Source of the DNA: Candidatus Woesearchaeota archaeon
Lineage (GTDB): Archaea > Nanobdellota > Nanobdellia > Pacearchaeales > GW2011-AR1
Length of the DNA: 64,000 nucleotides
Direction: 5' to 3'
Assembly: GCA_964545065.1 (NCBI GenBank)
Contig: CAZJEO010000001.1
Location: forward strand, 53,338 to 117,337
Part shown: in pieces, positions 5,986-58,975 of the stretch
Layout of the letters: each line of letters starts with the position of its first letter
Position numbering within the stretch: position 1 is the first letter of the stretch
The notes under the pieces: model-generated
What the model was told of the DNA's origin: nothing
What the model saw: the letters and a program-made list of their open reading frames with translations, nothing else
Databases searched by the model: none
Program-made: the position numbers and the translations under genes

Positions 5986-6030
5986 AGAAAATTTAAAATG
6001 GAATTCTATTTAAGGATTTCGGTATTAAAA

Positions 6031-6384
6031 TTAATATAGTTCAGGAGGATTCTCTATTAAAAGGTTACCTGAAGGTATATGATATTTATGGATAAATCCA
6101 TGTAAGTATTCTTGAATAATTCTTCCTGCATGTTTATCTCTCCTAGAGTAATCTAGTGTTCCTGTTATTCCTCCTATTTTTCGCCCTTCCCCTTTTTCAC
6201 AAGTCATTATATCTGCAATAATTCTCGGACCTCTTCCTACGCATTCGCGATTTACTCTTATCATTTCACCTGTTGTAGAAGCAGGCTCTTCAATAACTCT
6301 AAATCCAAATCTTTTTCCACATCCTTGTACAATTTTTTCAATATTTTTTTTCAATTCTTCCATTATTTGTGGATCAGATAACAT
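6031..6384 (-). CDS. hypothetical protein
   Basis: 117-aa ORF with no recognised motif. Confidence 0.5.
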   Translation of the reverse strand: MLSDPQIMEELKKNIEKIVQGCGKRFGFRVIEEPASTTGEMIRVNRECVGRGPRIIADIMTCEKGEGRKIGGITGTLDYSRRDKHAGRIIQEYLHGFIHKYHIPSGNLLIENPPELY

Positions 6385-14081: not shown

Positions 14082-14100
14082 TCTAGTTTATGACGAAATC

Positions 14101-14109
14101 TTTATATAA
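14101..14109 (+). promoter_or_regulatory. TATA box of tRNA-Gly
   Basis: TTTATATAA lies 22 nt upstream of the tRNA 5' end. Confidence 0.45.
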
Positions 14110-14131
14110 TTTATTTATGAATCAGGTGTAA

Positions 14132-14277
14132 GCGCGGATAGTTTATTGGTAGAATATCTCGTTGCCAATGAGAACCACCAGCGGGTTCTTCACAATTCCT
14201 GCAACCCAGCAGGAAGCTGTAGAATGAATGGTGGAAGCAAAAACGAGGTGAGCCGAGTTCGATTCTCGGTCCGCGCA
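14132..14277 (+). tRNA. tRNA-Gly (GCC) with a 75-nt intron after position 37
   Basis: Acceptor GCGCGGA/TCCGCGC, D arm GTTT-ATTGGTA-GAAT, anticodon stem TCTCG/CGAGG, loop TTGCCA|intron|A, T arm CCGAG-TTCGATT-CTCGG. Spliced length is 71 nt. Confidence 0.85.
14168..14242 (+). other. tRNA-Gly intron (canonical 37/38 position, relaxed bulge-helix-bulge)
   Basis: TTGC (14162..14165) pairs with GCAA (14237..14240), followed by the 3-nt bulge AAA (14241..14243) next to CGAGG. The 5' side is irregular. Internal helices are CCACC/GGTGG, AGAACC/GGTTCT and TTCCTGC/GCAGGAA. Confidence 0.7.
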
Positions 14278-14385
14278 TAACTTTTCGAGAATCTTACCCA
14301 AGGAGGGCACAAGAACCTCTTCGAGGCACTCTCCGAGTTTCCCAAGGGATGATACTTCGTAGGCCTCGATTCTCGGTCCGCGCAT
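14278..14385 (+). other. GC-rich tRNA-Gly pseudo-3'-half with an insert in the T loop (unknown function)
   Basis: Perfect 20-nt repeat of the tRNA 3' end (14259..14278 = 14366..14385). It is preceded by CGAGG and CCGAG-TTT and by the 28-nt insert TTTCCCAAGGGATGATACTTCGTAGGCC, which is also found after tRNA-Trp. Confidence 0.6.
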
Positions 14386-14423
14386 TTAGGAACTTTTAAA
14401 TAGCCGTGATTTATTTTTTCACT

Positions 14424-19952: not shown

Positions 19953-21770
19953 TCATTCCATCGGCTTACCGCTCATTCTAGAACCTTGTGCTCCTGGCAT
20001 TTGTCCTCCGAGTTCTACTGGTAATTGCATGAAGCCTGCTCCAAATGTTTCATAATTCATTTGAGGAAGCCATTGTCCTGATAAACCTCCCATATATCCT
20101 TGTTGTAATCCTTGTGCCTGATTCCAGTAAGGTGCCATGTCCATTGAATAAATAGGAGAACCAAATGCTTCCAGAGTTTCTTTGAATGGTGGTGTTTTGA
20201 AATGCTGCCACCAGTTTCCGGCTTCGATAATTTTCTTTGCATCAAATCCTTCTTTTCCTATTTTTTCGAGAATTTCTTTTATTGGAACATTTCCCATACC
20301 CATTGGAAGTTCTGTGTGCTCGAATCCGAAGTTGTCTGATAGGTGGATGTGTTTTACAAGAGGAGCAACTGCTTCTGTTTCTTTTACAATGTCTTTATCT
20401 TCATAGCCGTATTTTCTGAGCATGTTAATATGCCCAACATCCCAGGTTACTCCAAGAATCTTATCTGCTGCTTGCTGCGCTTGCTTTTTTGACATTCCTA
20501 AACCTCTTTGGTCTTTAGGTAGATTATAACTATCGGGTTTTGTTGCTCTTGTAACAAATTCTTCTCTTGCTTTCTCAACAATTTCCTTGAGTTCTTCTCC
20601 TGTGCTGAATCCTCCACCTGCAGGAGGATTTTCAATACTGATTATTGGTGAATTGTTCCCGAATTTTTTATAAGAATCAAATGCAATATTTGCGAATGTT
20701 TGAATGGTTTTTCCTTTGGCAAATGAGTCAATTTCTGTGAACATTTCTGGGAGGGTAATATCCTTCAAAGTTCCAATTCCTTCATCAATAACTTCTCTTT
20801 TTAGTATTGCTTTATCATGCGTGCTTTTTGACTTATTTATTTCTTCTACTTTTTGTGCTATTCGTTCTCCTAGTTCTTTTATTGTTTCTTTATCCTGATC
20901 TGTTGCTGCGTATTCATATGCTGATTCATAAACTCCCTTAAATTCTCTGTATGCATTATTGAGGAATGTGTCTGCCATGGTGAATGCGTGCTTCGCTCTT
21001 TTTTCTTTTTCATTGATTTCTCTTCCTTGTGCTTCTTCTAATTCAGCTATGACTGCTGTTTTTTCATATGTATCGATTAATTCACCTGCTCGTTCATTTT
21101 CATATGAGAGGTGACTAAGATTTTGAAGCCAAGAATCTTCATTTACTTTGTTAAGTTCTTTTTGAATTATATCCTGCTCTGTTTCAGTTTTTTTTCTCTC
21201 TTCTCCGGGGAAATGTTTTTCTTCTTTTATTGGGATTCTGTTAATCCCGCCTGTTTCCTTATTGATGATGAGCATTTCCTCTGCTTTTTTTCCTTTTTCT
21301 CCTATTTTTCCAGGAAGCATTACAGAAGAATGGAAAGTTACTGGGATGTTTCCGTCGGGATTTATTTCATGGCTTTTTTCAACTGCTGAGAACATCTGAC
21401 GCTCTGCTGCTTTTCTGTTTGTTTCTGTGAATCCTTCTTTCTGAGTGAGTCCTGATGCTTCTACAATTGGACCGTGAACAGAGATATCGACTCCTGTTAA
21501 TTTAGAAAGTCTATTGAGTTCCTTTAAGTGTTGTTTTGGAATTGATTCAAATACTTCTGGAGTTACTGCAGATATTTCCATGTGCTTAACTCCTGATGCA
21601 AGTTTTGCAGATGTATCCTGTAAGACATTTGCTGTTCGCGGGTCTGTTGTTAAACCAAAGCCGCCCGCATTTACCTTGTAGCCTGTGAAAACATCACCAT
21701 AAGTAGGTTTTAGAGAAGAGTATCCTCCCTGATAAATGCTACTTAAAGTATAACCACCTATTTTTGCCAT
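19953..21770 (-). CDS. xylose-isomerase-like/EndoIV-like TIM-barrel protein split by a ~250-aa charged insertion, with a G/Q/M-rich tail
   Basis: 605 aa. The N-terminal part has ISVHGP and VTFHSS; the C-terminal part has WDVGHINM and HIHLSDNFG (sugar phosphate isomerase/AP endonuclease 2 type ligands). The middle is Glu/Lys-rich and helical. The tail is MGGLSGQWLPQMNYETFGAGFMQLPVELGGQMPGAQGSRM. Confidence 0.5.
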   Translation of the reverse strand: MAKIGGYTLSSIYQGGYSSLKPTYGDVFTGYKVNAGGFGLTTDPRTANVLQDTSAKLASGVKHMEISAVTPEVFESIPKQHLKELNRLSKLTGVDISVHGPIVEASGLTQKEGFTETNRKAAERQMFSAVEKSHEINPDGNIPVTFHSSVMLPGKIGEKGKKAEEMLIINKETGGINRIPIKEEKHFPGEERKKTETEQDIIQKELNKVNEDSWLQNLSHLSYENERAGELIDTYEKTAVIAELEEAQGREINEKEKRAKHAFTMADTFLNNAYREFKGVYESAYEYAATDQDKETIKELGERIAQKVEEINKSKSTHDKAILKREVIDEGIGTLKDITLPEMFTEIDSFAKGKTIQTFANIAFDSYKKFGNNSPIISIENPPAGGGFSTGEELKEIVEKAREEFVTRATKPDSYNLPKDQRGLGMSKKQAQQAADKILGVTWDVGHINMLRKYGYEDKDIVKETEAVAPLVKHIHLSDNFGFEHTELPMGMGNVPIKEILEKIGKEGFDAKKIIEAGNWWQHFKTPPFKETLEAFGSPIYSMDMAPYWNQAQGLQQGYMGGLSGQWLPQMNYETFGAGFMQLPVELGGQMPGAQGSRMSGKPME

Positions 21771-21808
21771 CTTTGATTAAATAAAGTTTCCTTTATTTAT
21801 TAATTTAT

Positions 21809-22408
21809 CTACAAGTTAACTTTCCTGTATTTTTTCTGCTCTGGTTCAAAAGGCATCCGTCTTTCTTGTTCAAGAGTTTCTGTTGTGAATCTTGGTTCAT
21901 TGTTCTCTTGAATTTCAATCCGAGGCTCTGTTCCGCGCATTAAAACTTCCTGATTTCTTCCAGTTAATCTTGTTGATTCTAATACAGGAGCACCAATACT
22001 TTCATATTTTTTTTCAGATGTTTTTGTCCTTCTGAAATCATTGTATCGTGGTTCATTCTCTGAAATTGGTGAAGTAGTGTAATCAATTCTTGTTTGGTCC
22101 TCTTTATTTTCTTGTTGGGAATTAGGGAGGTTTAATTCTAATGCTTTTTGTGTTTGGACTCTTTCAAGAACTGGTGCACGAGAATTTGTTTCAATTTGAG
22201 TAAAGGATTGTTCAAATCCAGATTCTTCAATTTTATCTGCTTCTTTAATATTTTTTTCTAAAGGAGAACCACCAGCGGGTTCTTCCCAGTTCCTGCGACC
22301 TAACAGGAAGTTGATTTCAGATTTTTTTTCGACTATCTTTTTCTTTTTTTTAATCTCTTTGATTTTCTTTTGTTTTGTTTTAGAAATCCCTTTCTTTTTC
22401 TTTGGCAT
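21809..22408 (-). CDS. Lys-rich low-complexity protein, hypothetical
   Basis: 199 aa. N-terminus MPKKKKGISKTKQKKIKEIKKKKK, repeated APVLE motif. Sits between two co-directional genes with gaps of 2 nt (upstream) and 38 nt (downstream). Confidence 0.5.
   Translation of the reverse strand: MPKKKKGISKTKQKKIKEIKKKKKIVEKKSEINFLLGRRNWEEPAGGSPLEKNIKEADKIEESGFEQSFTQIETNSRAPVLERVQTQKALELNLPNSQQENKEDQTRIDYTTSPISENEPRYNDFRRTKTSEKKYESIGAPVLESTRLTGRNQEVLMRGTEPRIEIQENNEPRFTTETLEQERRMPFEPEQKKYRKVNL
22264..22313. repeat. copy of the tRNA-Gly-intron two-hairpin module inside a CDS
   Basis: 44/50 nt identical to 14170..14219. The first 22 nt (GAGAACCACCAGCGGGTTCTTC) are identical. Same + orientation, so antisense to the host mRNA. 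Confidence 0.85.
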
Positions 22409-22410
22409 TA

Positions 22411-23841
22411 TTAAGTGAAACTTTCCATTCCATGAGCATCCTTGTAAATATCAAATAAATTAAAAGCAGTATCTTTTGATTTGCTTGCTGCAAAAGGTCT
22501 GATGTTTTCTTTTTCAATAAAATTATCTACTTTGATGATAGAATCTTTTTTATCTTTTCCTTTTTTTGTTTCTTTTTTATCATATTTTCCAATTAATGCA
22601 AAAAATGGGTTTGATTCATCTTGGGATTTCTCTTTCTTTTTTTTGGCCTCGGGTTTTTCTTCCTCTTCTAAAAAGAAATCAATTTCGTCTTGCAATTGCT
22701 TTAAACTTTCATCAGTTGCTCCTTCAATCAAAGTTAAGACATCGCCAACATCTGAATTTGCTAATTCTTTTTCTAATTTTTCTAACTCTTCTTCGTTTAA
22801 TGCATATCCTCTAAAGGTTATGTTGGCTTTTCCTCCAAAAGCATAATGCGCTTGCTGACCTGCCTTCTGAGGTATTCCTCTGAATGTGAAATCAATTAAA
22901 ACACAGCTGTAGTATTTTCTTTTTAATGATTTTTGAATTCCTGCTTCTGAAAATTCTTTTGGCAAATTTCCTGCTATTGCTTCATCCTTAACGTCTATTT
23001 CATGTTTGCCCAACAAAGTTAATTCAAGAAGAATTGTATTGAATACTTTTACTAATGCTGGTTCTCTTGCATTTTCTTTTGATTCGAGTTGCTGTGCTGC
23101 TTTTAGATATGGCTTTGCCCATCGTGAATAAAGTTTCAAGCTATTGACCTGACTTCTTAGATAATTTCTTTCAATTTCATATCTTTTTCTTAGTTCTTTT
23201 TCAGATTGGTCTAGCCATGCATTGAATTCCATTACTCTTGGTTTTAGGATTCTTCTCACTCTGTCGTTTAAGTCTAATTTGTCAACATCTTTTGCCTCTT
23301 TTGCTACGAGAAATGCATCAATGAGGGTTTGGAAACCTGCTTGGCCAAGTGCCATTGCTTTAATACTTGAGTTTTGTTTGGCTATATCTACTTTGTCCAT
23401 CCAGAGTTGTTTTAATGCGAGTGTTGCAGCATCTTTTTTACTTTCATCTTTTGATTTTAATCCCTCGTAATGATCTAATCTTATTCTGAATTCCTTTAAA
23501 TCATAGATAATATTTAGGACGCTTCTTAAAACAGTGTTGACATCTCCGAGTATTTTTGTTGCTTGTTGCTGCATTATTGTTGCTCTCTGTCCAAGTTCTG
23601 CAAAGTGTCCTGAACCAGGAGTAGATGAAAAGTTGTCTATGATCTTTTCTGGGCTTAACCCGTAGTCTGTCATTAAATCAACAATGAAAAAGTAAACTGG
23701 CTCAAGCGTTTCTGTTGAGGAATCATATTCAAGAACATGTTCTGTTTCTGGTTCTCCTTTTTTCTTATAGTATGGTGAAACATCTTGGATTATTTCAAAT
23801 ACTGATTTTATTTTTGTTTCTTCCTCTTCTGTTTTTGCCAT
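22411..23841 (-). CDS. hypothetical protein (476 aa, helical core, acidic/Lys-rich C-terminal region)
   Basis: Long ORF and first gene of the 23841..19953 string. I recognise no motif. Confidence 0.6.
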   Translation of the reverse strand: MAKTEEEETKIKSVFEIIQDVSPYYKKKGEPETEHVLEYDSSTETLEPVYFFIVDLMTDYGLSPEKIIDNFSSTPGSGHFAELGQRATIMQQQATKILGDVNTVLRSVLNIIYDLKEFRIRLDHYEGLKSKDESKKDAATLALKQLWMDKVDIAKQNSSIKAMALGQAGFQTLIDAFLVAKEAKDVDKLDLNDRVRRILKPRVMEFNAWLDQSEKELRKRYEIERNYLRSQVNSLKLYSRWAKPYLKAAQQLESKENAREPALVKVFNTILLELTLLGKHEIDVKDEAIAGNLPKEFSEAGIQKSLKRKYYSCVLIDFTFRGIPQKAGQQAHYAFGGKANITFRGYALNEEELEKLEKELANSDVGDVLTLIEGATDESLKQLQDEIDFFLEEEEKPEAKKKKEKSQDESNPFFALIGKYDKKETKKGKDKKDSIIKVDNFIEKENIRPFAASKSKDTAFNLFDIYKDAHGMESFT

Positions 23842-37765: not shown

Positions 37766-38737
37766 TTAAATCCCCCCAATCGGATCACTAAATTCTTCAT
37801 CAACTTTTTTAACTCTTTCTTGATCTAGCTCTTTAAGTTCTTCTTCAAGTTCTGCTTTTAGTTCTGCAAAAGGATCTTCATTGTGTTTAAGGAAAACATC
37901 TTTGAGCCAGATGTAAATTTCGTCAAAATGATTTTCTTGATGGAGCCAAATCTTTTTCTGATTTTCTAAATGCAAAAGAGGCAAGAGCGAGATTATTTTT
38001 TCTTCTCTATCTTCCCCAATCAATTCATTAATTGAGATTTTTTTCTTTATTTCTTCGTCTTGTAAATGCTTGAAGAGTTTATTATAAAGTTCTTTCATTT
38101 TGTCCTTGGTACTGAATTTCTTTTTTGGAAGTGAGAAAGAACTTTTTCTTACAGCGTTATTGTTGATTGTTATTTTTTGGATTCTTCTATTTTCTGTTGT
38201 AATTGCCTTGTTTAATGATTCAATTAATTCTTGTAATGTTACTTTTTTGAATCTTGGAATCGGACTTCTTAGAACGAGCTCTGGAATTTCTTCATCAAGT
38301 TCTATTCTTTCTAAAGCGTATTTTTTCTCTTCTTTTTTTCCAAATAGAATTTCATCTATGCTTTTTATGTAGGTATTTAGAAGAATTTCTGATTTAATCT
38401 TCAAAAATAATGATGCTGCGAGCAAAACTTTACTTGAAATAAAAAAATCTGCTTCTTCCATTTTTCTTACTTTTTCGAGATATTTCTCTGACAAGATTAT
38501 AATATCAATATCCCATGCGTCCAATTGTTCTGTATTAATCAAATCATAGATGATTTCTTGCCATCCTAGCTCTCTACTAAAGAGTAAATCGTGGATTTGG
38601 TCTTGTTTTACTGAATGAAGAACCTCCTGCGGGTTCTTTCCAGCTTCTTGCTTCCGACCTTGCTCGTATTGATTGCTATGTGCTCTTGCAAAATCGCTCG
38701 GCATCCCAGTAGAAGTTGATGAATCACCTTCTTTCAT
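37766..38737 (-). CDS. scpA: segregation and condensation protein A (kleisin)
   Basis: The core LLFSRELGWQEIIYDLINTEQLDAWDIDIIILSEKYLEKV...LLAASLFLKIKSEILL is typical of ScpA. There is an unusual ~45-aa N-terminal extension. Confidence 0.75.
   Translation of the reverse strand: MKEGDSSTSTGMPSDFARAHSNQYEQGRKQEAGKNPQEVLHSVKQDQIHDLLFSRELGWQEIIYDLINTEQLDAWDIDIIILSEKYLEKVRKMEEADFFISSKVLLAASLFLKIKSEILLNTYIKSIDEILFGKKEEKKYALERIELDEEIPELVLRSPIPRFKKVTLQELIESLNKAITTENRRIQKITINNNAVRKSSFSLPKKKFSTKDKMKELYNKLFKHLQDEEIKKKISINELIGEDREEKIISLLPLLHLENQKKIWLHQENHFDEIYIWLKDVFLKHNEDPFAELKAELEEELKELDQERVKKVDEEFSDPIGGI
38618..38660. repeat. diverged copy of the intron hairpin module inside the scpA 5' region
   Basis: AAGAACCTCCTGCGGGTTCTTTCC compared with the intron AGAACCACCAGCGGGTTCTTCAC: same stem AGAACC/GGTTCT, 18/20 over the hairpin. 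+ orientation, so antisense to the scpA mRNA. Confidence 0.55.
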
Positions 38738-58834: not shown

Positions 58835-58905
58835 GGGTGCGTCGTACACTGGTAGTATACCTGCCTCCAGAGCAGATGAAGGGGGTTCGATTCCCTCCGT
58901 GCCCA
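58835..58905 (+). tRNA. tRNA-Trp (CCA), intron-less
   Basis: Acceptor GGGTGCG/CGTGCCC (two G-U pairs), D arm GTAC-ACTGGTA-GTAT, anticodon arm CCTGC-CTCCAGA-GCAGA, T arm GGGGG-TTCGATT-CCCTC. Confidence 0.8.
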
Positions 58906-58975
58906 TCGGGCTCTCACCCCAAGGGGTTTCCCACAGGGATGACCTACTTCGTAGGCCGCGATTCCCTGGTGCCCA
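58906..58975 (+). other. GC-rich tRNA-Trp pseudo-3'-half with an insert in the T loop (unknown function)
   Basis: AGGGG-TTT + insert TTTCCCACAGGGATGACCTACTTCGTAGGCC (58927..58957) + GCGATT-CCCT-GGTGCCCA mimics the tRNA-Trp T arm and acceptor 3' strand (1 deletion, 1 substitution). The insert matches the one after tRNA-Gly. Confidence 0.6.

Follow-up and report, generated by a model that had tools for sequence, protein, structure and literature searches.

The gain of introns by archaeal tRNA genes is an open question. In Thermoproteales, similar introns are present in the genes of different isoacceptor tRNAs, which points to gain after speciation (Fujishima et al. 2010, as cited in PMC4090602), and this transposition was inferred without a mechanism or a source element. 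In another described case, intron gain and stray tRNA fragments seen at a single locus in one population were linked to an integrating 1.8-kb element that encodes a recombinase (Sugahara et al. 2012; PMC3293823). Here, we describe a short hairpin repeat, designated E, that occurs three times in a 64,000-nt stretch of a Candidatus Woesearchaeota archaeon genome (assembly GCA_964545065.1, contig CAZJEO010000001.1, positions 53,338–117,337; hereafter the window, numbered from its first nucleotide): once in the intron of a tRNA-Gly(GCC) gene and twice within protein-coding genes. The window is AT-rich (GC content, 32.5%) and matches scaffold_81 of ENA ERZ23499938 ZHAO22-1, a metagenome scaffold also assembled from SRR8799001. 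Loci of other genomes are referred to by handles such as L113. E is best explained as a small non-autonomous mobile repeat that host genes tolerate either as an in-frame insertion or, within tRNA genes, as a relaxed bulge-helix-bulge intron, a reading to which we assign a probability of roughly 0.6.

In behaviour, the transposed introns of Thermoproteales are the closest counterpart of E; with both, the need for a bulge-helix-bulge motif limits where copies survive (PMC4090602). E differs from them in that it also resides outside tRNA genes (in frame in proteins, and at gene starts and ends), that its intron copies all lie at the canonical position 37/38, and that the family spans several phyla, including DPANN. 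Rickettsia palindromic elements (RPEs) are ∼100–150 bp in length and are not known outside Rickettsia. Like E, they are short palindromes located in frame in the proteins of small genomes, are translated and encode no transposase (PMC1166351; PMC10969869). E, in contrast, is 38–54 nt long, archaeal and distributed across phyla, and doubles as a tRNA intron. As with RPEs, in-frame insertions missing from orthologues were found (18 codons in a gene designated ORF A, and an N-terminal segment in ScpA). The repetitive extragenic palindromes (REPs) of the REP/RAYT system, which are 20–40 nt in length, and the hairpin derivatives of IS200/IS605 elements resemble E as multi-copy, strand-specific imperfect hairpins, and REP/RAYT and E alike have neither terminal inverted repeats nor short target duplications (PMC3733652). 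Unlike REPs, E lacks the GTAG/CGTC head (it starts with T[GA]AGAACC) and is often intragenic, and no RAYT or TnpA gene was found near the E copies or in the window. E shares with the case of Sugahara et al. the duplicated tRNA ends beside inserted DNA (PMC3293823), but its inserts are only 54–100 nt long and encode nothing. No match to E was found in Rfam, and literature searches directed at this repeat or at the mobility of tRNA introns in archaea returned no description of it; what sets it apart is that one 38- to 54-nt module serves as intron, tRNA-end and in-frame insert and is shared across archaeal phyla. Its presence in these three settings (the canonical splice site, tRNA 5′ or 3′ ends, and in frame in protein genes), together with filled and empty sites in close relatives, makes intron gain testable. 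Annotators should expect repeat insertions that are translated in small DPANN genomes, and tRNA genes of this kind that tRNA finders overlook at default settings.

A 22-nt sequence, GAGAACCACCAGCGGGTTCTTC, is present in exact form at positions 14170 and 22264 of the window, and no second match was obtained in 100 shuffles. By blastn, the two surrounding copies share 42 of 47 positions (E = 2e-10), whereas the similarity of the third copy to the intron alone is weak (18/20, E = 0.2) and would by itself be marginal. Chance or low-complexity similarity, which could appeal to this third copy, is nevertheless refuted and its probability practically nil: an nhmmer search using a profile built from 39 distinct E cores of family members identified the third copy as a clear family member (38618–38645, E = 3e-8), along with the first (E = 1.7e-12) and second (E = 4.6e-11) copies. 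This profile gave exactly three matches in the window, all on the + strand, and no further copies in 20 kb of added flanks from the same assembly.

Copy 1 is a long-form copy (14169..14222, +; core, 14169–14206) that begins at the 5′ splice site of the tRNA-Gly intron. Covariation counts support its two hairpins, namely P1 (AGAACC at 14171–14176 and GGTTCT at 14184–14189) and the tail hairpin (CAGC at 14207–14210, the loop AGGAA, and GCTG at 14216–14219). Copy 2 (22262..22315, +) is a 54-nt, 18-codon in-frame insertion that is antisense to ORF A (21809..22408, −), in which it occupies approximately codons 31–49; ORF A encodes a lysine-rich protein of 199 aa with conserved synteny and without Pfam match. 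Copy 3 is antisense to the scpA gene (37766..38737, −), in an N-terminal extension preceding the Pfam domain (residues 66–277), and is split by a nested 56-nt insertion of a different small repeat (38645..38700, +). Its left part (38617..38644, +) covers core positions −2 to 25, and its right part (38701..38720, +) consists of GCATCC and the decayed tail hairpin CAGTAGAAGTTGAT; an intact orthologous copy is present in L114. The closest named ScpA homologues are those of Pacearchaeota and Nanoarchaeota metagenome-assembled genomes (MAGs). Copies 2 and 3 end 95 and 77 nt after the respective start codons and are read in different frames (NWEEPAGGSP in ORF A and AGKNPQEVL in ScpA); NWEEPAGGSPLEK is an example of the peptides predicted from translated E copies. 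The first-pass annotation had reported the second copy at 22264 and the + orientation of both extra copies inside minus-strand open reading frames (ORFs) in different frames, all of which holds. It had placed a looser third copy at 38618..38660; its membership in the family stands, but its limits are those of the two separated parts given above. The claimed AGAACC/GGTTCT hairpin likewise stands in part: the isolated element does form P1, but in the minimum-free-energy fold of the whole pre-tRNA it is replaced by other pairings.

Three side observations concern these protein genes. The ends of the 56-nt insertion in copy 3 are GAGCGATTTYRCRAGA and GAGYRAGGTCGSRAGCA; it keeps the frame of ScpA, and a relative of it is located upstream of scpA in L114 (2905–2966), so that it looks like a third small repeat family. 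ORF A belongs to a three-gene cluster (window 19953–23841, −) that is syntenic across several Woesearchaeota and Nanoarchaeota MAGs and encodes a 605-aa xylose-isomerase-like TIM barrel protein, the 199-aa lysine-rich protein and a 476-aa protein without Pfam match. E also lies just downstream of an orthologous gene of 455–476 aa in four genomes (L064, L065, L084 and the window, 22262–22315), three of which have the flank GTATAACTYGSCATTG in common; this copy is either old and retained or marks a preferred site of insertion.

The tRNA-Gly(GCC) gene (14132..14277, +) was identified by a match to Rfam RF00005 (46.4 bits; the fifth tRNA of the window in the Rfam scan), by the intron search of ARAGORN, which returned tRNA-Gly(gcc) i(37,75), i.e. 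an intron at the canonical 37/38 position, and by exon alignment; ARAGORN with default settings did not call a tRNA-Gly at 14132..14277. The 75-nt intron (14168..14242, +), whose ends can shift by 1–2 nt owing to flanking A residues, terminates in an intron-specific tail (14223..14242, +), in which GCAA (14237–14240) pairs with TTGC of the anticodon loop (14162–14165). The UUGC/GCAA helix, a 3-nt AAA bulge and the anticodon-stem strand CGAGG form the 3′ half of a bulge-helix-bulge motif. The interruption after position 37 and this pairing had been proposed from the first reading, and Rfam, ARAGORN and the sequence agree on them. A canonical motif (hBHBh′) has a 4-bp helix between two 3-nt bulges, with further helices on the outside. 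Here, the 5′ bulge adjoins the P1 hairpin and not a contiguous helix, in keeping with the irregular 5′ half noted in the first-pass annotation, and unconstrained folds differ. The exons are identical (71/71) to those of the intronless genes of L110, L111 and L112, whose flanking genes are only ∼87% identical to those of the window, and a TATA-like sequence, TTTATATA, lies ∼35 nt upstream. Given unchanged exons beside neighbours that differ at ∼13% of sites, the gene is very likely functional; because of this the intron would have to be spliced, and we infer from the exon conservation that splicing takes place in vivo. The intron was also compared with known RNA classes. The haloarchaeal tRNA-Trp intron hosts a C/D box small RNA, with a C box of RUGAUGA, a D box of CUGA and a guide. 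No Rfam match besides the tRNA was found in the window at the gathering threshold or in the region 14100–14300 at E ≤ 10; a C/D box small RNA in the intron likewise gave no Rfam match up to E = 10, and only weak look-alikes (AUGAGA and UUGA) were seen by eye. A ribozyme or C/D-box identity was rejected, as the core motifs are absent by eye. A spurious 80-aa ORF (14143..14385, −) overlaps the tRNA-Gly gene and corresponds to an 80-residue gene called in the public assembly (L001, 18024–18266).

Comparison with relatives revealed presence/absence differences at all three window sites. The two closest ORF A orthologues (∼80% identity) are missing exactly 18 codons at this site (EINFLLGRRNWEEPAGGSP versus G), and at the DNA level the 54-nt difference corresponds to a long-form E without target duplication. 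Most ScpA orthologues (290–295 aa) begin with M-x-K-E-E-K-N-SVKQ and have no insert. In ScpA of L114 (P0006, TARA sample, 84% identity), by contrast, this site is occupied by a long-form E that is intact (profile E = 3e-12); the window copy is the same insertion, later split by the 56-nt repeat. tRNA-Gly is intronless in L110, L111 and L112. L110 possesses an E of its own in an insertion of ∼99 nt (6020–6125) between the genes for an ABC transporter and a class I aminoacyl-tRNA synthetase (Pfam tRNA-synt_1c), a site at which the window and L112 have overlapping TAATG stop and start codons; the TGA of E is the stop codon of the ABC-transporter gene, and besides E the insertion contains 45 A/T-rich nt. 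A metagenome scan for E joined to the Gly anticodon loop identified L113, the genes of which are ∼75% identical to those of the window at the nucleotide level and in which tRNA-Gly has E at the same site, within an intron of 60 nt that has a similar end (GCAAGCAAAAA). The alignments thus show the segments to be insertions (54 nt in ORF A; N-terminal in ScpA), and the earlier claim that conservation lies at the nucleotide and not the protein level agrees both with the different frames and with the orthologues that have no such segment.

As a mobile repeat, E would spread within and between archaeal genomes, and its copies would persist only at sites where they do little harm. In tRNA-Gly, it would have settled at exactly 37/38 with P1 abutting the 5′ splice site, and a short locus-specific tail would provide the 4 nt that pair with loop nucleotides 32–35, followed by the 3-nt bulge; the insertion could then be read as a relaxed bulge-helix-bulge intron and E be removed by the splicing endonuclease. 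In the protein genes, E would be accommodated antisense and in frame in poorly conserved N-terminal tails and would be translated. Movement presumably occurs at the DNA level by means of an enzyme acting in trans. Family membership, sharp ends, covariation, polymorphism at three sites and a recurring intron architecture are all observed for E.

A census was made by scanning one genome per prokaryotic species for the 20-mer AGAACCNCCNGCGGGTTCTT, which matches 107 loci. Approximately 66 copies in 32 archaeal species-level genomes (low-GC MAGs) share 18 further conserved core bases. The carriers comprise 13 Woesearchaeota, 3 Pacearchaeota, 4 Nanoarchaeota, 3 Iainarchaeum, 1 Aenigmarchaeum and 1 Parvarchaeota among DPANN, together with 4 DHVE2/Aciduliprofundum, 2 Bathyarchaeia and 1 Thermoplasmata. 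Conservation begins abruptly 2 nt before the 20-mer and ends abruptly 16 nt after it, defining a 38-nt core with the consensus T[GA]AGAACC[TA]CC[AT]GCGGGTTCTT[CA][AT]CA..TCC[AT]GC[AG][AT]CC. An optional 16-nt tail hairpin (NNNC-AGGAA-GNNN) on about one-quarter of the copies produces the 54-nt long form. The matches in high-GC bacteria are without the extended core; seven translated loci encode GGKNPLVVL of aldehyde dehydrogenases, so that they were rejected as coding look-alikes, and a derivation of E from aldehyde dehydrogenase genes was dismissed as well, the shared 20 nt reflecting coding convergence. No match to the 20-mer was found in the IMG/VR viral contigs.

A single MAG contains up to nine copies. 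Copies are found at contig ends, and others are in tandem (54, 68 or ∼90 nt apart), nested or truncated, all of which are signs of a proliferating repeat. Of the 67 classified copies, tRNA introns account for 6, the surroundings of tRNA genes (up to 150 nt) for 16, ORFs for 17 and intergenic regions for 28; approximately one-third are thus in or beside tRNA genes. The 10 copies downstream of a tRNA gene all have the opposite orientation to it, and 4 copies abut a tRNA 5′ end. Most of the 17 ORF copies lie no more than 130 nt into the ORF; both orientations and several (at least four) frames are represented. The first-pass annotation had named many copies in both orientations as the mark of a plain MITE-like repeat, and this is what the family as a whole displays. 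Intergenic copies often adjoin the first or last codon of a gene: read on the reverse strand, E supplies GGAGGT 6–8 nt before the neighbouring ATG in six loci, and on the forward strand its first three bases, TGA or TAA, are used as the stop codon in some loci. These features probably make insertions between tightly packed genes harmless. E was also considered as a protein motif (EEPAGGS, KNPLEVL or RTSSGFF), which does not fit the several frames and orientations or the variable positions, which have no codon periodicity. A resemblance of NF.LL and AG[DT].KNP, encoded in two frames of the reverse strand, to the viral 2A-like peptide NFDLLKLAGDVESNPGP was judged a coincidence, since NPGP is absent and two frames would be needed.

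The long form of E has two stems. P1 is the 8-bp hairpin that opens the core; the two initial bases of E extend this stem and covary with positions 19–21 (TA..TA or TG..CA). The tail comprises a 4-bp stem and an AGGAA loop, with the compensatory changes CAAC/GTTG, CAGC/GCTG, CGGC/GCCG and GCGC/GCGC. In the 14 long copies, 98% of the cells are paired compared with 89% in shuffles (0 of 500 reached the observed value), and three of the four tail-stem pairs change on both sides. Because G·U pairs are confined to the + strand reading of E, this is the structured strand, and it is also the sense strand of the intron. In addition, core positions 6 and 29 show a lone Watson–Crick covariation (T/A in 43, A/T in 15 and other combinations in 4 of 62 copies) that has no neighbouring pairs and that neither P1 nor the tail hairpin nor a reading frame accounts for; in the window, these positions are 14177/14200 and 22270/22293.

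Such covariation, including the unexplained pair, can also be cited for the view that E is a selected cis-acting module, retained for its function and secondarily duplicated, for example a binding site for a conserved archaeal protein, or a signal for RNA processing or translation initiation. That reading can further draw on the near invariance of the 38 nt across phyla, the placement of GGAGGT before ATG and of stop codons at the gene borders described above, the uniformly antisense copies downstream of tRNA genes, and the recurrence of E at one intergenic spot in L064, L065 and L084. It is nonetheless unlikely, as presence or absence varies among close relatives at every window site, the coding-sequence copies are in at least four frames and both orientations, the truncated, nested and tandem copies and the breaks at contig ends are typical of proliferating repeats, and Rfam offers no match.

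E-bearing introns are not limited to the tRNA-Gly of the window. Five of them are in the sense orientation: tRNA-Gly (the window and L113), tRNA-Arg (L026 and L005) and tRNA-Pro (L097). The distance from the 37/38 junction to the start of E is 0–1 nt in each, and at the 3′ end of each intron are 4 nt that can pair with positions 32–35 of the anticodon loop and then 2 nt more; the pairings, UUGC/GCAA, UUGC/GCGA, CUUC/GAAG and UUCG/CGAA, represent the 3′ half of the bulge-helix-bulge motif. In one antisense intron (tRNA-Ser, L061), P1 again adjoins the splice-site helix, here at the 3′ end of the intron. At least four tRNA species thus have E at the canonical splice position. These arrangements suggest that P1 may stand in for the outer helix of the motif, and we infer that, within tRNA genes, only those insertions survived in which P1 abuts the splice site and a matching 4-nt tail is present. 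DPANN splicing endonucleases have been reported to possess an L3 loop. The tRNA-Arg intron of L005 (5834–6034, −) is 127 nt long, with the anticodon loop CUUCGGA, read as Arg-TCG, and contains E followed by two tandem 33-nt units, each consisting of the exon-like GTTCGGAAA and an E from which sequence between the two AACC repeats has been deleted, which is evidence of slippage and duplication around E.

In each of the five sense-oriented introns, the sharp 5′ end of E coincides with the 5′ splice site, which would suit an element that moves as RNA. A retro-mobile tRNA intron would be an excised RNA, with ends defined by the endonuclease and joined by RtcB, that is copied into DNA or reverse-spliced and then reinserted. 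The splicing endonuclease and ligase machinery is universal in archaea. The identity of structured and intron-sense strands, the restriction of the family to archaea and the failure to see a dedicated transposase in the window and 65 loci agree with this, and intron transposition between Thermoproteales tRNA genes is documented (PMC4090602). The same work, however, argued for gain at the DNA level (PMC4090602); moreover, no reverse transcriptase was found in the window, intron 3′ ends are locus-specific, unlike the right ends of copies outside tRNA genes, and just 6 of ∼67 copies are in introns. We consider a retro-mobile intron quite unlikely. A related proposal, in which E is a self-contained mobile intron module that moves with the universal endonuclease and ligase plus some copying step and whose freed introns could act in trans, is rather improbable. 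If true, it would explain the archaeal restriction, the identity across phyla and the match between 5′ end and splice site; E would then be a live example of the creation of new archaeal tRNA introns, and the intron RNAs could act on the antisense copies in mRNAs.

A regulatory role of this type had been suggested at the outset, when the first-pass annotation offered two readings, a small mobile hairpin element and an antisense regulator; the former is favoured by the multiple copies in both orientations, and the latter now appears as an unneeded by-product. In the regulatory model, the ORF A and scpA mRNAs would be bound in the 5′ part of their coding regions by the excised, possibly circular intron, and would be translated less or become less stable. 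Complementarity to both mRNAs, as had been claimed, is real: the computed duplex energies are −80.7 kcal/mol for ORF A (shuffles, −28.6 ± 4.3) and −51.1 kcal/mol for scpA (shuffles, −25.4 ± 4.3), with a 22-nt perfect match to the former, and both targets lie 77–95 nt after the start codons. Free tRNA introns of yeast (fitRNAs) with long complementarity to mRNAs repress them (bioRxiv 10.1101/2025.11.19.689297), and the E intron is similar to them in this complementarity. In contrast to the experimentally demonstrated eukaryotic case, that of E is predicted from the sequence and is explained by repeat insertion: two genes that each received the same repeat in antisense orientation automatically become complementary to the intron. 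Orthologues do not have the target segments, which are thus recent or patchily distributed insertions, and the partner copies are not co-conserved: relatives with ORF A have no insert in it, L110–L112 have no intron, and in close relatives the intron and the ORF A copy are both absent. E copies are present in both orientations in many unrelated genes, and the intron folds on itself at −27 kcal/mol. Antisense regulation is accordingly very doubtful; the pairing looks like a by-product, and although incidental cross-talk may occur, nothing points to regulation as the reason for these sequences.

Several results weigh against the interpretation of E as a mobile repeat. The Pfam-scanned ORFs of the window (most of those ≥70 aa) are housekeeping genes, and none encodes a transposase, integrase, reverse transcriptase or HUH protein. 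Near the E copies of 65 archaeal loci, only housekeeping or synteny families recur and no transposase-like family, although whole genomes were not searched. No target-site duplication was found in three clean pairs of empty and filled sites (ORF A, tRNA-Gly and L110), and E has no terminal inverted repeats, as its ends, TGAGAACC and GGAAGTTGAT, are not inverted repeats and the palindrome is internal; because of these two features, E is not a classical miniature inverted-repeat transposable element. A selfish repeat would not usually stay nearly identical over 38 nt from one archaeal phylum to another, which could indicate that E has a selected function. Three Woesearchaeota/Nanoarchaeota MAGs have E at the same intergenic spot with homologous flanks (L064, 576–613; L065, 6437–6474; L084, 6326–6363), which implies that the copy was retained for a long time or that the spot is prone to insertion. 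Finally, a simple recent gain of the intron is weakened by L113, which carries E in the same tRNA. The intron may predate the split and have been lost in the L110 clade, whose gene is also inverted; alternatively, E entered the same site of tRNA-Gly twice. Neither history is clearly favoured because the window and L113 copies differ at covarying positions. The inversion of tRNA-Gly between its conserved flanking genes (window, 14084–14394, versus L110, 18924–19107) is seen in L111 and L112 as well, and the intergenic region around it, including the promoter, is unrelated between the window and these three loci.

At five other loci, E is associated with long flank duplications of variable length: the left flank (11–32 nt) is repeated just to the right of E, and the spacer contains 5–9 nt complementary to the end of the left flank. 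This is the same logic as that of the 4-nt intron tail, on a larger scale. The architecture, in the order X, E, reverse complement of the end of X, A/T-rich spacer and X, where X is the left flank of 11–32 nt, is observed at L051 (730–830), L072 (2565–2660), L082 (6990–7110), L031 (1985–2080), L084 (6310–6400) and L087. Depending on the locus, X corresponds to a gene start, to the 5′ end of a tRNA or to a tRNA 3′ end beginning at T54, and in L051 and L072 the inserted stretch is again ∼54 nt.

In DHVE2/Aciduliprofundum MAGs (L034, 3830–3990; L070, 1200–1350; L063; L057; and L059), E is part of ∼90-nt tandem units, in which it lies between perfect hairpins (CCTTTCTTTTAAAGAAAGG) and GTTTC..GAAAC hairpins. 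These copies are usually 45–140 nt downstream of tRNA genes and always antisense, with a degenerate relative, GGGAACCGCCAGCTCGCGAGAGCCTCCTGCAACC, nearby. A CRISPR array was rejected as an explanation for the 90-nt spacing, as the sequence between copies is conserved and Tandem Repeats Finder reported no array.

Further tRNA-derived sequences are present in the window itself. An insert of ∼88 nt downstream of tRNA-Gly (within 14278–14384) holds CGAGAATC, the inverse complement of the T arm, and a degenerate second 3′ half of the tRNA. It also contains a hairpin module, GGGATGATACTTCGTAGGCC (14346–14365), followed at 14366–14384 by an exact 19-nt copy of the tRNA-Gly 3′ end with the native TTT trailer. 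The same module, as GGGATGACCTACTTCGTAGGCC (58936–58957), is located just 3′ of tRNA-Trp (58835–58905), within 58906–58975, and the nucleotides after it (58958–58975) imperfectly repeat the 3′ end of this tRNA, so that duplicated tRNA 3′ ends may be linked to a second small repeat family.

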